Below are positions 8,140-20,490 of a DNA stretch of 42,135 nucleotides, in pieces. The notes under the pieces were generated by a model. It was not told where the DNA came from and did no database searches. It saw nothing but the letters and a program-made list of their open reading frames with translations. A program made the translations under genes and the position numbers. Numbering within the stretch: position 1 is the first letter of the stretch; every line of letters starts with the position of its first letter. Source of the DNA: Gammaproteobacteria bacterium (lineage in GTDB: Bacteria > Pseudomonadota > Gammaproteobacteria > Nitrosococcales > Methylophagaceae); assembly GCA_002402245.1 (NCBI GenBank), contig NVVP01000003.1:1-42135 (forward strand), written 5' to 3'.

Positions 8140-8391
8140 CGGTTAACACCTTATTTAATTTTTCATTAACGTCATGCTCAAATAATTGTGAGGCACTGCT
8201 TAGTTCAAACGCATGGCGGGCAGCACTATTAATGTATTGGGTTTCTTTTTGCTGGTATTGGGTTACAGCAGAATCAAATCCTGCCTGATATTTAGCTTCA
8301 CCATAATGGTGGATATAAAAATAGGTACCGGCTGTATGCTGGCGAGTAATAACAGGGCAATGGCTGGTTTAAGCAAGGCAATATTAAGCAT
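8045..8391 (-). pseudogene. Inner-membrane spanin (i-spanin, LysB/Rz-like) split by a 1-nt frameshift
   Basis: The ATG at 8389-8391 overlaps the endolysin stop by 8 nt and gives a TM-like N-terminus (MLNIALLKPAIALLLLASIQPV...) that stops at 8263. The periplasmic part (...GTYFYIHHYGEAKYQAGFDSAVTQYQQKETQYINSAARHAFEL...) is open in the -1 frame from 8368 to a TGA at 8045 and contains no Met. Confidence 0.55.
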
Positions 8392-8881: not shown

Positions 8882-9168
8882 GATATTTTGCTCTCAAGGT
8901 ATTGCCTGATCAGCACACTGGCAGTTTCTGTCCCCAGCGTGCCTAATGCCGCTGAAATGGCAATAAGCACCAAGGCGTTAGGATCTGCCACAAATAAACA
9001 GGCCGCACCCGATACTAAGCCTAAAATGCTGTTGCTAATGGCGTAACCAATGGCTTGCTTTGCTGTTCTAGGCTCTGATGATGCCAAGGTTTTGCCAATG
9101 CTGGCTAAAAAAGCAACGCCTAAAAGGATCAGCGCCGTTTCGATAGTGTCAGGATCAATTTTTATCAT
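8878..9168 (-). CDS. Holin (probable)
   Basis: 96 aa with several hydrophobic helices, directly upstream of and overlapping the endolysin. Size similar to the P2 Y holin. Confidence 0.6.
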   Translation of the reverse strand: MIKIDPDTIETALILLGVAFLASIGKTLASSEPRTAKQAIGYAISNSILGLVSGAACLFVADPNALVLIAISAALGTLGTETASVLIRQYLESKIS

Positions 9169-16104: not shown

Positions 16105-16314
16105 ATGATGGAATTGATGATGCCAAAACAAAAACGCCAAGATATTCGCTGTGGACACTGTGATCGTAAATTAGCTGAAGGAAGTTATTACTCTTTATCG
16201 ATCAAATGTCCACGCTGTAAAACACTAAATTTGCTGACGGTCACTAGAACCGCTAAACCAGCACTCCTTGAGAGTCTTGATCAAAGGATCTCTCATGGAA
16301 ACAATACAACTTAA
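16105..16314 (+). CDS. com: Com-like zinc-finger protein (Mu Com family translational activator)
   Basis: IRCGHCDRKLAEGSYYSLSIKCPRCKTLNLL parallels Mu Com IRCKNCNKLL...IEIRCPRCKRHII (CxxC...CxxC). GAGGG Shine-Dalgarno 8 nt upstream. The 3' end overlaps the methyltransferase start. Confidence 0.7.
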   Translation: MMELMMPKQKRQDIRCGHCDRKLAEGSYYSLSIKCPRCKTLNLLTVTRTAKPALLESLDQRISHGNNTT

Positions 16315-17233
16315 TAATGTATTACTGCACAAAACTGACTGCTTTACCTTCTTAAAATCATTAGCCGATAACAGTGTTGATCTTATTGCCACCGATCCCC
16401 CTTATTTTAAGGTGGTCGCGCAAGGCTGGGATAAACAATGGCAAACCAAAGCTGATTTTTTGACGTGGCTAGATAAAGTGCTTATTGAATTAGCGCGAGT
16501 ATTAAAACCAAATGGTTCAATGTATTTATTTGCCGGGCCACATTCAGCAACGCAAGTAGAAAACCTAATAGCCAAACACTTTAATATGCTCAATCACATT
16601 GTGTGGCGTAAACAATCAGGTCGCCACCTTGGCTGTTGCAAAGAAGAATTACGCCGATTCTTCCCTCAAACTGAACACATTCTATTTGCGACAAGTAAAA
16701 AGCCGGTACCGTTTTCATTTGAACCCATCAGACGATATCTATTGAATGCCATAAAAAAGGCAGGTATTACACAAAAGCAAGTAGATAAAGCATGTGGTTG
16801 CCAAATGTCGGGTCATTGGTTTGGTAAAAGCCAATGGTCATTACCCAGTGAGAAACATTACAACACCATCAATAAACTGGTAAACAATCGATTAAAACCT
16901 TACCAGCAAATTTATCAGAGTTACCACGATATCCTCAAACTATCCAACTCTGCAAGACGAACCTTTAACGTAACCAAACAGGTACCGTTCACTGATGTAT
17001 GGGATTTTAAAACCGTTAATTACTACCAAGGCAAACACCCTTGTGAAAAACCAATTGAATTAATGAATCACATTATCTCGACCAGCTCACTACCTGATGA
17101 TGTCGTATTAGATTGTTTCACCGGCAGCGGTTCAACCGCCATAGCCTGCATCAATACTAATCGACAGTTTATCGGCTGCGAACTAGGCGACGATGAATTC
17201 ACCATGGCAAGCAACCGTCTCAATCCAACATAA
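16295..17233 (+). CDS. Beta-class N6-adenine/N4-cytosine DNA methyltransferase (orphan)
   Basis: Motif IV DPPY (LIATDPPYF) is N-terminal and the AdoMet motif FTGSGST is C-terminal, giving the circular order IV...I. I prefer the ATG at 16295 with AAGGA 6 nt upstream over the track TTG at 16268. Confidence 0.85.
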   Translation: METIQLNNVLLHKTDCFTFLKSLADNSVDLIATDPPYFKVVAQGWDKQWQTKADFLTWLDKVLIELARVLKPNGSMYLFAGPHSATQVENLIAKHFNMLNHIVWRKQSGRHLGCCKEELRRFFPQTEHILFATSKKPVPFSFEPIRRYLLNAIKKAGITQKQVDKACGCQMSGHWFGKSQWSLPSEKHYNTINKLVNNRLKPYQQIYQSYHDILKLSNSARRTFNVTKQVPFTDVWDFKTVNYYQGKHPCEKPIELMNHIISTSSLPDDVVLDCFTGSGSTAIACINTNRQFIGCELGDDEFTMASNRLNPT

Positions 17234-17250
17234 GCAGTACTTATATCCAT

Positions 17251-17282
17251 AGCTGGTCAGCCTAAAGTTAGGTTGACCAGCT
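17251..17282. terminator. Hairpin between the convergent methyltransferase and DUF2971-like genes (bidirectional terminator candidate)
   Basis: AGCTGGTCA...TGACCAGCT forms a 9-bp perfect stem that can extend inward through GCCTAA/TTAGGT. No strong T-run follows. Confidence 0.45.
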
Positions 17283-17286
17283 AACC

Positions 17287-18159
17287 CTACCTATAAGAAG
17301 CCTTAGACGGCTTCACCTCAACATTGTCATAACCAGCCTGCTTAAGCAAGCTCTCAACAACATGGATAGGCGTTACGTTTTTAGGCCCCAATATAACCTC
17401 GGTAATAAGACTCCTATCTTCCTTGTCAAAATGAAATTCTCTAAAGGGGGTAATACAATCATCCTTCGAACGAAAATTACATAAAGCATTATTGTCTTTT
17501 GGATCAAGATGTATATCCATCAGATAGCTCACTAACCGCCATTCCTGCTCTTCGATAAATGCTTTCGATTTAAAAGAAAAAGATATTTTTGGCAGATCCG
17601 TTAGTAGGGAAGAGAGTAAACTAACACACTGCGATCTCTGTTTCTTATGGGCGGCTGTAGGATTACGGTGTTTCTGTAGCTGTTCTAGAGTATCAAGCTC
17701 TGCCTTTAAAGGAATGTAAAGCTCCTTCACAATTTCTTTTTGCTTGGCTTCATCGTACTCAATTGGTTGCAATGTAGTTAACGGGTTTTTCAGTTTATTA
17801 TTCTTTGAGCTTTGATTGCACGCTAACTTTAAAGCATCTAAAGAAAAGCCTATAGAAAAACCTTTTGCATCATTTGCATAACCTCGCCACTGACTAAGTA
17901 AATCATCCTCCGCTGATAAGCAGAATCCCAGCCCCTCGAACATAGGCGAAAATGCTTTTAACTGCGCTTTTAAGAGTCCTGCCTTCCATTCACCGAAGCC
18001 GTCTTCATTTGCTACTTTTAATAGTAAGTCGGAAACCAACTTACCTTCCATTGAATCATTCGATAGCGATAACGAGTTTAAAAAAACGGATCGGTTTTTA
18101 ATGATCGAAAGAAAGGCACCGTTCGAGCAGTAATGGTAAAGAGTGTCAGTATTATTCAT
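17287..18159 (-). CDS. DUF2971-like protein, function unknown (prophage cargo)
   Basis: LYHYCSNGAFLSIIKNRSVFLNSLSLSNDSMEG, then SQWRGYANDAKGFSIGF, then EEQEWRLV. This fits my recollection of the DUF2971 (PF11185) signature. No virion or lysis role is suggested by its position. Confidence 0.6.
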   Translation of the reverse strand: MNNTDTLYHYCSNGAFLSIIKNRSVFLNSLSLSNDSMEGKLVSDLLLKVANEDGFGEWKAGLLKAQLKAFSPMFEGLGFCLSAEDDLLSQWRGYANDAKGFSIGFSLDALKLACNQSSKNNKLKNPLTTLQPIEYDEAKQKEIVKELYIPLKAELDTLEQLQKHRNPTAAHKKQRSQCVSLLSSLLTDLPKISFSFKSKAFIEEQEWRLVSYLMDIHLDPKDNNALCNFRSKDDCITPFREFHFDKEDRSLITEVILGPKNVTPIHVVESLLKQAGYDNVEVKPSKASYR

Positions 18160-18232
18160 GTTTCTGATTCTATATTAGTTAGGGCCATATCCAAAGTAAA
18201 CGCTACTTTAAAAAAACCATTAAACCTTAAAA
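18125..18232. repeat. Copy 1 of a ~107-bp direct repeat (5' end of the DUF2971-like CDS plus its promoter/operator)
   Basis: Aligns with 19154-19260. Fully conserved blocks include ATTATTCATG, TATATTAG and CAAAGTAAACGCTACTTTAAAAAA, followed by CCATTAAACCTTAAAA. Confidence 0.85.
18172..18209 (-). promoter_or_regulatory. Candidate sigma70 promoter (TTTACT-17-TAATAT) with an overlapping dyad AAAGTA-N5-TACTTT, upstream of the DUF2971-like gene
   Basis: On the minus strand the -35 is at 18195-18200 and the -10 at 18172-18177. The dyad at 18193-18209 overlaps the -35. The hexamers and dyad are conserved in copy 2 while the spacer has diverged. Confidence 0.4.
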
Positions 18233-18286
18233 TCATAGGCTGTCCATCACCGACAATGATTTCATAATTATTTTAAACTTCCAGCG

Positions 18287-19102
18287 TTACTGACTAAGTG
18301 ATGCTTTTTTGCCATCTAAATTTATTACATTAACAAGACCGTTACCAGTGTTTTCCTCCGGTCCACTATAGATAATTTGCGAGCCGTTACTATGGTATTG
18401 TTGAATTACCCCACCTTGTCGGGTCGACTCGATCTTAATGAGTTTTTTATCTGCATTCTCATCAAGTAACCTGATAAAGCTTTTGTTTGTATCTCCATAG
18501 ACTCCCATGATCAAGGATTCTTTATTTTTATCATTAAAAAATAACAGTTGCGGCTGATCATTAAATAAAGACAATGAAAGCTTTTTATCTTCAGATTCAT
18601 TATTGATTAAAATCATCCCGTCTCCATCTTGATCTGCTCGGATATCTACAGCTACTATGCCATCCGAATTTTTTATCTCAACCGCACTTAGTGATAATTT
18701 TTGACTTCCATTTTTTAGCTGAGCCAATAAATCATTTACTTTTATCTGTTGAATTTGTTTGATTTTTAAATCAGCAGCATGCCCAGCTTCAGATTCTATC
18801 TCTTGAATGGCCGCTTTTTTTTTCTGCTCTAATTCAGTAGTAGCAGTATCTATTGACGCTTCCCACTTACTGAATTTGTTTTCAAAAGGGGCGGTGCGAT
18901 CATTTAAAGATAAAAGTTTAGTTTCTAAAGATAAAATCTTGTCTTCCAAAGCACTAAACCATGTTGCTCCCCAAATGCCAGCGGCAGAAAACAATGCAAT
19001 TACTAAAAAGCCTGCATATATATTTTTATCTATTTTATGCTTGTACTCTTCTAGAACGGAGAGCCGTTGTTTTAAATCCTGTACTTGTTCATCAGTAGCC
19101 AT
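18287..19102 (-). CDS. Membrane-anchored coiled-coil protein with a C-terminal strand-turn repeat domain; function unknown (prophage cargo)
   Basis: AAAGGA Shine-Dalgarno 7 nt upstream of the ATG. One TM helix at roughly residues 28-50 (IYAGFLVIALFSAAGIWGATWF), flanked by heptad-like segments. Residues ~135-271 form about 11 repeats of 11-14 aa. Confidence 0.8.
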   Translation of the reverse strand: MATDEQVQDLKQRLSVLEEYKHKIDKNIYAGFLVIALFSAAGIWGATWFSALEDKILSLETKLLSLNDRTAPFENKFSKWEASIDTATTELEQKKKAAIQEIESEAGHAADLKIKQIQQIKVNDLLAQLKNGSQKLSLSAVEIKNSDGIVAVDIRADQDGDGMILINNESEDKKLSLSLFNDQPQLLFFNDKNKESLIMGVYGDTNKSFIRLLDENADKKLIKIESTRQGGVIQQYHSNGSQIIYSGPEENTGNGLVNVINLDGKKASLSQ

Positions 19103-19165
19103 AAAAAATCCTTTGGTAGGTAATTCACAACAATGGAATAAAATGTATCGATTGAGCAGTAGTAA

Positions 19166-19189
19166 TCAAAGGCTGTCAGGATTATTCAT
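19166..19189 (-). pseudogene. Relic 5' end of a second DUF2971-type gene (MNNPDSL-stop)
   Basis: ATGAATAATCCTGACAGCCTTTGA aligns with the ATGAATAATACTGACACTCTTTAC start of the intact gene (MNNTDTLY). Confidence 0.5.
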
Positions 19190-19200
19190 GCTTGCACCCT

Positions 19201-19238
19201 ATATTAGATAGAACTATACCCAAAGTAAACGCTACTTT
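19201..19238 (-). promoter_or_regulatory. Second copy of the TTTACT-17-TAATAT promoter plus AAAGTA-N5-TACTTT dyad, upstream of the relic and the 271-aa gene
   Basis: -10 at 19201-19206, -35 at 19224-19229, dyad at 19222-19238. Same geometry as copy 1. Confidence 0.4.
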
Positions 19239-19366
19239 AAAAAACCATTAAACCTTAAAACCCTCATCAATCCTCCACCCCACAGCACGCTGCGCGCTTC
19301 CCCGACCCGACCTGCGGTTTTTAAATGCGGTAAAAATGTGCAGGTAATGTTCTGGTGCAATCGACC

Positions 19367-19391
19367 AAGGTATAAAGGTATTTAAAGGTTA
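19367..19391 (+). repeat. Three tandem AAGGTAT/AAGGTTA motifs (8- and 10-bp spacing)
   Basis: AAGGTATAAAGGTATTTAAAGGTTA, read directly from the sequence. Confidence 0.6.
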
Positions 19392-19473
19392 TGTGCAAAT
19401 AAAAGACTTTATTACACGTGCTGAATAACTGTTTTTAACTGTTTTCTACCAAGCGTGATTTTCATCTAGTGCG

Positions 19474-19486
19474 CGCAAAAGTGTAA
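19474..19486 (+). repeat. Left arm of a 13-bp perfect inverted repeat CGCAAAAGTGTAA
   Basis: The reverse-complement partner is at 19759-19771, 272 bp away. Confidence 0.8.
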
Positions 19487-19551
19487 CTTATGCAACGGTG
19501 TAGGCTATTTATTACTTAACCTACTGTTTTTAAATTAATAAAAAATATATT

Positions 19552-19565
19552 AAAAGTGTAACTAT
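19552..19565 (+). repeat. AAAAGTGTAACTAT motif copy
   Basis: Shares AAAAGTGTAAC with 19477-19487. Confidence 0.7.
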
Positions 19566-19567
19566 TA

Positions 19568-19610
19568 GGGGATAAAAGGTGATAAAAAAGGTGATTATTT
19601 ACAAGGTGTT
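19568..19610 (+). repeat. Phased GGTGAT(A/T)-rich repeats (GGGGATAAAA / GGTGATAAAAAA / GGTGATTATTT / AAGGTGTT)
   Basis: 10-12 bp periodicity with A-tracts; iteron-like or bent DNA. Confidence 0.55.
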
Positions 19611-19651
19611 GTTTTGTATGGTTTTTGTTGTTTTCTCTTGTTATGGTTATT

Positions 19652-19662
19652 AGTGTAACTAT
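19652..19662 (+). repeat. AGTGTAACTAT motif copy
   Basis: Identical 11-mer to 19555-19565. Confidence 0.7.
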
Positions 19663-19758
19663 ATTACATAGTGATCACTTATAAATTACATTCTTCATTA
19701 TCCGTTAAACCTATAAGCACCAATGGATACCGCTTTGTTTTTCGCGCAATCCCATAGA

Positions 19759-19771
19759 TTACACTTTTGCG
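19759..19771 (-). repeat. Right arm of the 13-bp inverted repeat CGCAAAAGTGTAA
   Basis: The plus strand reads TTACACTTTTGCG. Confidence 0.8.
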
Positions 19772-19849
19772 ACACCCTGTATGTTTGTCCTGAATGCATC
19801 GATATCACGTATACGCGGGGTAGTTTTTCGTAAATACGCGAGGAATGCT

Positions 19850-19877
19850 TTGACAGTGGGTTTAAACAGTGTATAGT
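19850..19877 (+). promoter_or_regulatory. Strong sigma70-type promoter TTGACA-16-TATAGT for the rimP-nusA-infB operon
   Basis: Consensus -35 at 19850-19855 and near-consensus -10 at 19872-19877, 167 nt upstream of rimP. Confidence 0.6.
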
Positions 19878-19972
19878 GGCGGTCTTTAAGAGGTCGAGGG
19901 GAAGGGTTAAGCTCTGAACTTCAGTGCAGGGTATCGGTTGTTGCGAGCCCCCGCTACCAATTTAACAAAAAC

Positions 19973-19997
19973 AGACCCCTTTATGGGGTTTTTGTTT
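19973..19997 (+). terminator. Intrinsic terminator/attenuator in the operon leader
   Basis: ACAGACCCC-TTTAT-GGGGTTTTTGTTT: a GC stem followed by a T-run. Confidence 0.6.
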
Positions 19998-20016
19998 ATC
20001 TGGAGGTTAGGAAATT

Positions 20017-20039
20017 GGGCTATAGGCCCTTTTTTTTTA
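20017..20039 (+). terminator. Second weaker leader hairpin with a T9 run
   Basis: GGGC-TATAG-GCCC followed by TTTTTTTTT, ending 4 nt before the rimP ATG. Confidence 0.35.
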
Positions 20040-20043
20040 TGTT

Positions 20044-20490
20044 ATGGCGATACAAGATCAAATTGAACAATTAATTGAGTTGCCAATTGAGTCTCTTGGC
20101 TATGAATTGGTGGGTATTGAATATATAAAGAATGGTCATCACACTGTTCTTAGAATTTATATTGATGCAGAGCAAGGTATCTTGATAGAAGACTGTGAGC
20201 GTGTCAGTCATCAAGTAAGTGGTATCTTAGAAGTTGAAGATCCAATCAGCTCAGCCTACTCATTAGAAGTTTCTTCGCCAGGCTTTGACCGACCTCTATT
20301 TAAAGCAAGAGACTTTGAACGTTTTGCTGGCAGTGAAGCCAAAATTTCAATGAAACTACCTGTTCAAGGACGCCGTAATTTTAAGGGCGTTTTACAAGGA
20401 ATGGATGGCGATGAAATACTGATTTTAGTTGATGGTGAAGAATATGGTCTACCATTAAGCAAATTAGCAAAAGCAAGATTAGTTGCGTAA
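20044..20490 (+). CDS. rimP: Ribosome maturation factor RimP
   Basis: 148 aa. ...SLEVSSPGFDRPL... motif, directly upstream of nusA. Confidence 0.9.
   Translation: MAIQDQIEQLIELPIESLGYELVGIEYIKNGHHTVLRIYIDAEQGILIEDCERVSHQVSGILEVEDPISSAYSLEVSSPGFDRPLFKARDFERFAGSEAKISMKLPVQGRRNFKGVLQGMDGDEILILVDGEEYGLPLSKLAKARLVA

Follow-up and report, generated by a model that had tools for sequence, protein, structure and literature searches.

A duplicated upstream module with a DUF2971 gene relic in the cargo region of a P2-like prophage

The portal-to-replication (gpQ-gpA) interval is the main defence hotspot of P2 (PMC9122126, PMC13586616). P2 defence loci often contain small intergenic remnants of genes, which have been read as recombination scars, and recognisable defence-gene remnants are rare, amounting to about 2% of P2 pseudogenes (PMC13586616). 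Morons are described as independent transcription units (PMC3594210). Here we analyse a 42,135-bp stretch (hereafter the window) of contig NVVP01000003.1, which belongs to a metagenome-assembled genome (MAG) of a gammaproteobacterium of the family Methylophagaceae (GCA_002402245.1). In this window a P2-like prophage carries two cargo genes on the minus strand, one for a 290-aa DUF2971 protein and one for a 271-aa membrane protein, and each is preceded by a copy of the same short module. One copy runs into the intact DUF2971 gene, and the other ends in a relic of such a gene.

The locus resembles P2 hotspot cargo (PMC9122126, PMC13586616, PMC3594210) in that variable cargo lies directly past the portal in a set of P2-type structural genes, both cargo genes occur elsewhere as solitary mobile genes, a small intergenic remnant stands beside intact cargo, and the composition of the inserted gene is unlike that of its neighbours. 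It differs in that the remnant is recognisably defence-type and has an intact paralogue 1 kb away, that the remnant carries a duplicated upstream module, and that the phage attachment site (attP) lies inside the same interval. We take this placement of attP within the cargo interval to be a phiCTX-like layout. A second comparison is offered by the mosaicism of temperate (lambdoid) phages, in which short conserved boundary or linker sequences mediate the homologous exchange of modules. Here too, a short perfectly conserved block at a gene boundary flanks an exchanged cassette; the difference is that the block was seen within one genome only and no second phage carrying it was found.

DUF2971 has been assigned to the ADP-ribosyltransferase (ART)-like proteins related to DarT and AbiGi, a family for which a conserved tyrosine (motif II) and an ExE motif (motif III) have been described (PMC12522546). 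The 316-aa DUF2971 protein Aristaios is reported to be a single-gene abortive-infection system of lactococcal plasmids (PMC11381338).

The locus is a further example of the morons or cargo cassettes known from P2-like hotspots and is no new kind of system; it reveals no new mechanism and is a fairly ordinary cassette-shuffling scar. What it offers is a clean, dated-looking snapshot of gene gain by a phage cargo hotspot, with an upstream module duplicated so that both cargo genes keep a head, and thereby an illustration of the recombination-remnant picture that statistics have recently given for P2 hotspots. Two genes of candidate cargo function also come to notice, one coding for an ART-like DUF2971 protein and the other for a rare, beta-rich protein anchored in the membrane.

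Two copies of the module and the DUF2971 relic

An earlier note on this DNA placed direct repeats of about 107 bp at 18125-18232 and 19154-19260. A BLAST search with positions 18125-18240 against the 2.4-Mb genome they come from returned the query itself and 19154-19260 (83% identity, E 1e-22); no third copy was found in this genome, the next matches having E > 0.2. Alignment of the two copies with each other, which the earlier note had proposed, gave a local score of 120 against a shuffle maximum of 29 (500 shuffles) and set the extent of the repeat at 18104-18232 and 19133-19260 on the minus strand, ~129 bp each. The two copies are thus real and homologous, but the length first given to them was too short. 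The alignment spans 131 columns, with 104 identities, 22 substitutions and 5 gaps, which corresponds to 79% identity with gaps counted. No similarity was detectable between the flanks (68 bp upstream and 84 bp downstream were compared), and the repeat unit is therefore sharply bounded; homology continuing past the 129 bp was thereby ruled out. A genome-wide repeat element was also rejected, since the two copies stand alone in the genome and none occurs in 82 genomes of the family.

The sequence of the repeat region is the same in the MAG contig, in scaffold_462 of the ENA assembly ERZ23500207 and in a Logan contig of SRR5988124, and the agreement of three assemblies excludes an assembly artefact. 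Outside the cargo region, where the MAG contig and the ENA scaffold do not differ at all, the two are distinguished by an indel near 8336 (window ~8287-8336) and by four single-nucleotide differences at 8976, 12345, 14730 and 17097, which suggests that the phage population contains slightly different strains.

The proximal copy (18104-18232) consists of an upstream region and 19 codons from the start of the intact DUF2971 gene, and the distal copy (19133-19260) of the same upstream region and a frameshifted DUF2971 5' relic. As had been noticed before, the opening codons are conserved in both: the ATGAATAAT start has its ATG at 18159 in the proximal and at 19189 in the distal copy. The relic itself (19133-19189, minus strand) reads MNNPDSL-TGA in frame 0 and then, following a 1-nt insertion, DYYCSIDTFYSIVVN in the +1 frame, where the resident DUF2971 gene has YHYCSNGAFLSIIKN. 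Past the insertion the homology runs for ~15 further codons, so that the relic totals ~20 codons and not 7. The earlier note had the layout right, with 63 bp between the MNNPDSL-stop and the ATG of the 271-aa gene, but took the relic to end at that stop.

The resident gene and the relic have in common an N-terminal extension, MNNxDxL, which is present in none of the 44 related proteins with listed N-termini; where their start is evident, these begin with M..LYHYCSN.AF.SII. The shared, lineage-specific extension and the +1-frame continuation together identify the relic as a paralogue of the 5' end of the resident gene. Judged by these sequence features, what the distal copy preserves is a true relic, made up of the promoter-proximal region and 5' end of a DUF2971-type gene. 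Frame 0 of the relic beyond its TGA is in frame with the open reading frame of the 271-aa gene (19090-19189: MNNPDSL, stop, then LLLLNRYILFHCCELPTKGFF-MATD...), which is probably a coincidence.

The conserved block and the origin of the two copies

Conservation is heterogeneous along the repeat. The upstream 42 alignment columns contain no substitution and a single indel, in a T run, and the other 89 columns are ~70% identical. By permutation, a clean run of 42 columns arises in 0.03% of cases (P about 3e-4) when the indel is ignored and in 4% when it is counted as a difference. The substitution-free block, comprising an A/T-rich tract, a dyad and the hexamer TTTACT, occupies 18191-18232 in the proximal copy and, with one T fewer, 19220-19260 in the distal copy, both on the minus strand. 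The dyad AAAGTA-GCGTT-TACTTT (AAAGTAGCGTTTACTTT) is exact at 18193-18209 and at 19222-19238. TTTACT (18195-18200 and 19224-19229) lies 17 bp upstream of TAATAT (18172-18177 and 19201-19206), and the two hexamers form a candidate sigma-70 promoter at 18172-18200 and again at 19201-19229. The TAATAT, the TTTACT at 17 bp and the exact dyad over the -35 were therefore all found in both copies as first described; the divergence, however, is not limited to the 17-bp spacer that the earlier note named, and identity is ~70% throughout everything downstream of the 42-bp block. The distal copy alone has a second candidate, TTTAAA-17-TATAGT at 19213-19241, which the promoter scan lists instead. A terminator role for the block was ruled out by the lack of a hairpin with a U tract on either strand.

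Read along the minus strand, the locus begins with the attP arm and the relic-bearing module copy; the 271-aa gene, the second module copy and the DUF2971 gene follow, and a hairpin comes last. We consider it fairly probable that the two copies are paralogous upstream-plus-5'-end modules of a DUF2971-type cargo gene in a P2-like cargo hotspot and that they stem from cassette acquisition. A complete foreign gene, that of the 271-aa protein with its own ribosome-binding site, would have been joined ~19 codons into one module copy; the other copy still heads the intact DUF2971 gene. Each module would supply a sigma-70-type promoter, in which the A/T-rich, UP-like tract precedes TTTACT and TAATAT, the two hexamers being 17 bp apart. 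Transcription from the distal copy would then cover the 271-aa gene and also read through into DUF2971, since terminator prediction gave nothing on the minus strand between them; DUF2971 would have an internal promoter in the proximal copy, whose candidate -10 ends 12 nt ahead of the ATG, and the transcription unit would stop at the hairpin at 17250-17283. The 42-bp block may have been kept by constraint on the -35 and UP part, by a crossover tract, or by both, and the crossover may have taken place when related phages exchanged DNA by Campbell-type or unequal homologous recombination.

Several observations weigh against this explanation. The candidate promoter matches the consensus hexamers at 8 of 12 positions, and such sites occur ~3.3 times per kb per strand in the phage; the promoter scan does not call TTTACT-17-TAATAT. 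If TAATAT is the -10, the DUF2971 transcript would have a leader of ~6 nt and no Shine-Dalgarno sequence. Three distinct upstream regions of homologues likewise have no obvious Shine-Dalgarno motif, and the ~6-nt leader is thus neutral evidence. Constraint and a recombination tract are inseparable from just two sequences, and no related phage with the module was found, so that cassette exchange is proposed from one genome. Exact scans of public collections with the two halves of the 42-bp block returned nothing or 19 chance matches, the flanks of which were 21-39% identical.

A somewhat unlikely alternative is that the repeat is a neutral recombination scar, in which the 42 bp are a recent crossover or gene-conversion tract and at least one of the two module copies does not itself serve as a promoter. 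The clean block stands right at the sharply bounded upstream side of the repeat, and the remainder is uniformly ~70% identical, as expected of a joint between homeologous modules; moreover, the hexamers and the dyad are no rarer than chance, and recombination remnants are common in P2 hotspots (PMC13586616). However, the position of both copies is just that required of a promoter, no other candidate promoter is common to both genes, and the -10 block CTAATATAG is intact inside the diverged part. The dyad AAAGTA-N5-TACTTT over the -35 could also be an operator through which one dedicated DNA-binding protein co-regulates both cargo genes. We regard this reading, which the earlier note proposed, as unlikely. 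The dyad is exact in both copies, lies within the substitution-free block and overlaps the candidate -35, but perfect 6-bp dyads with 3-8 bp spacers occur in the phage at a background of ~0.3 per 129 bp, no other full or relaxed dyad (nor a further copy of the 42-bp block) occurs in ~30 kb of phage with the immunity and regulatory region included, and no regulator gene was found next to the cassette. The whole 42-bp block is conserved, beyond the dyad, and an UP element plus a -35 explains this equally well.

Two further ideas concern the nature of the repeat itself. That it codes for a structured RNA (a leader or a small RNA, for example) and not for DNA-level signals is very improbable: the dyad is able to form a 6-bp hairpin, but folding on both strands of both copies is no better than that of shuffles (z-scores +0.9, +0.9, -0.5 and +0.5), the predicted folds of the two copies are unlike, and the repeats have no Rfam match. 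On the folding scores and the Rfam result the RNA reading was ruled out. It is tempting to speculate that the 42-bp block is a portable promoter-linker of a group of uncultured P2-like phages, at once the constitutive or regulated promoter core of cargo genes and a site of homologous recombination at which circularised or unequal cassettes come and go, and that the 271-aa gene pops in and out; we consider this a long shot. An integron-like site-specific cassette system was rejected, as no recombinase adjoins the locus (none is encoded at 16-20 kb of the window) and other genomes and collections lack the block.

The two cargo genes

The 271-aa gene (18287-19102, minus strand) has its own AAAGGA ribosome-binding site, and the repeat homology ends ~30 bp ahead of its ATG at 19102. 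Its product is predicted to start with a helix, followed by a single transmembrane segment (about residues 28-46) and a coiled coil, and to end in a beta-rich domain. Scans of Pfam, PADLOC and phrog gave no family match and a word index gave no homologue. An exhaustive HMMER search of 1.84 billion sequences recovered 36 remote homologues besides the protein itself, the best at 41% identity, and they share one architecture; a profile search with the word index added one protein, on a 1.6-kb contig. In their alignment, this very rare family has a C-terminal domain of roughly 12 strands with conserved glycines (GG...GP..N.G.GL.NV). The N-terminus of the 271-aa protein aligns with the remote homologues from residue 1, from which it follows that the gene arrived whole, and together with the ribosome-binding site this upholds the view that it was inserted as an intact unit. 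The GC content of the gene is 35.2%, compared with 39-43% in its neighbours. The gene is thus real, rare and foreign in origin. The sole homologue that could be located in a genome, a Desulfobulbaceae MAG, stands alone among IS elements, integrases, a PIN toxin and a Gp49 toxin; no DUF2971 gene is nearby, and the two cargo genes are therefore no obligate pair. No phage or plasmid match was found for the protein, a structure model built from two sequences only had a pLDDT of 45, and a profile search of the PDB returned coiled-coil noise only.

The intact DUF2971 gene (17287-18159, minus strand) encodes 290 aa. Comparison of N-termini with its relatives establishes the ATG at 18159 as the true start, and the 254-aa gene call of the public assembly begins too late. 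The genome holds no other DUF2971 gene. The protein matches Pfam PF11185 (52.4 bits, cut-off 22) and phrog_1762. Its nearest relatives, of about 287 aa, are spread over many phyla, and in three genomic contexts homologues are solitary genes next to transposases or a gasdermin protease. In an alignment of 34 sequences, Y94, E204 and E206 are invariant and H9 is nearly so.

Compared with Aristaios and the PADLOC candidate PDC-S31, the resident protein passes the Pfam threshold for DUF2971, its gene stands alone on a mobile element, and it keeps the conserved Y and ExE residues of the ART-like family (PMC12522546). In contrast, its match to PDC-S31 is weak (33 bits, partial), its nearest relatives are 46-48% identical, and Foldseek against the PDB found no ART fold, no match having E below 0.1; the AF2 model had a pLDDT of 88. 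On the basis of the two published studies (PMC12522546, PMC11381338), the protein is predicted to be ART-like, and its gene is a candidate for an abortive-infection defence of the single-gene type.

The methyltransferase and DUF2971 genes converge, and between them lies a hairpin (17250-17283) with 16-bp arms that are 94% complementary, found as an inverted repeat. It has no U tract and is not called by the terminator scan; it is likely the end of the cargo transcription unit.

Prophage setting

The genes to the left of the cargo are P2-type and include gpO, capsid, small terminase, gpL, lysis and tail genes, terminase gpP and portal gpQ, with the Pfam families Phage_GPO_N, Phage_cap_P2, Phage_term_smal, Phage_GPL, Phage_P2_GpU and Phage_GPD. 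After the portal come a gene for a Com-like zinc ribbon that overlaps a DNA methyltransferase gene, and then the cargo. In this pair (16105-17233), the Mu Com-like gene (Pfam Zn_ribbon_Com, phrog 'translational regulator') overlaps the start of an N6/N4 DNA methyltransferase, an arrangement that resembles com-mom with a methylase instead of mom.

Homology to 33 genomes of the same genus begins at 19946, and another contig of the same MAG (C16, 50500-52491) holds an empty site, consisting of tRNA-fMet, the rimP leader and rimP, that is 99% identical to 19946-20110. The prophage therefore occupies the 3' end of the tRNA gene metY, upstream of rimP, and since occupied and empty sites occur in one MAG, the sampled population mixes lysogens and non-lysogens. 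At the right junction, attR (19946-19962, plus strand), the host homology opens with the last ~14 nt of tRNA-fMet (AGCCCCCGCTACCA).

The cargo thus forms a non-core insertion, as morons do, between the portal and com-methyltransferase genes and attR, and its two genes are the last ahead of a 0.7-kb attP arm; the earlier note's placement of them as cargo is supported. On the ENA scaffold, the genes for immunity and replication (CP76-like, HTH, primase) are found on the other side of the tail genes, which would place the cargo in the portal-to-replication interval of the circular phage, a circle that is not closed. The far side of this scaffold ends in the primase and small genes, and the recovered portion of the phage contains neither an integrase nor attL. 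Close relatives of the portal, DUF2971 or 271-aa proteins were not found in viral or genome collections, and portals within the order are 33% identical at best.

The arm that adjoins attR (19261-19945) is free of genes and contains repeated AAGTGTAAC-type motifs, both direct and inverted, at 19480, 19553, 19651 and 19760. These motifs are candidate arm-type sites for the integrase or an accessory factor. Integration in metY parts rimP-nusA-infB from the metY promoter. Inside attR (19850-19962), an outward TTGACA-16-TATAGT with 11 of 12 matches points into the rimP leader, and this predicted promoter could restore expression of the essential rimP operon.

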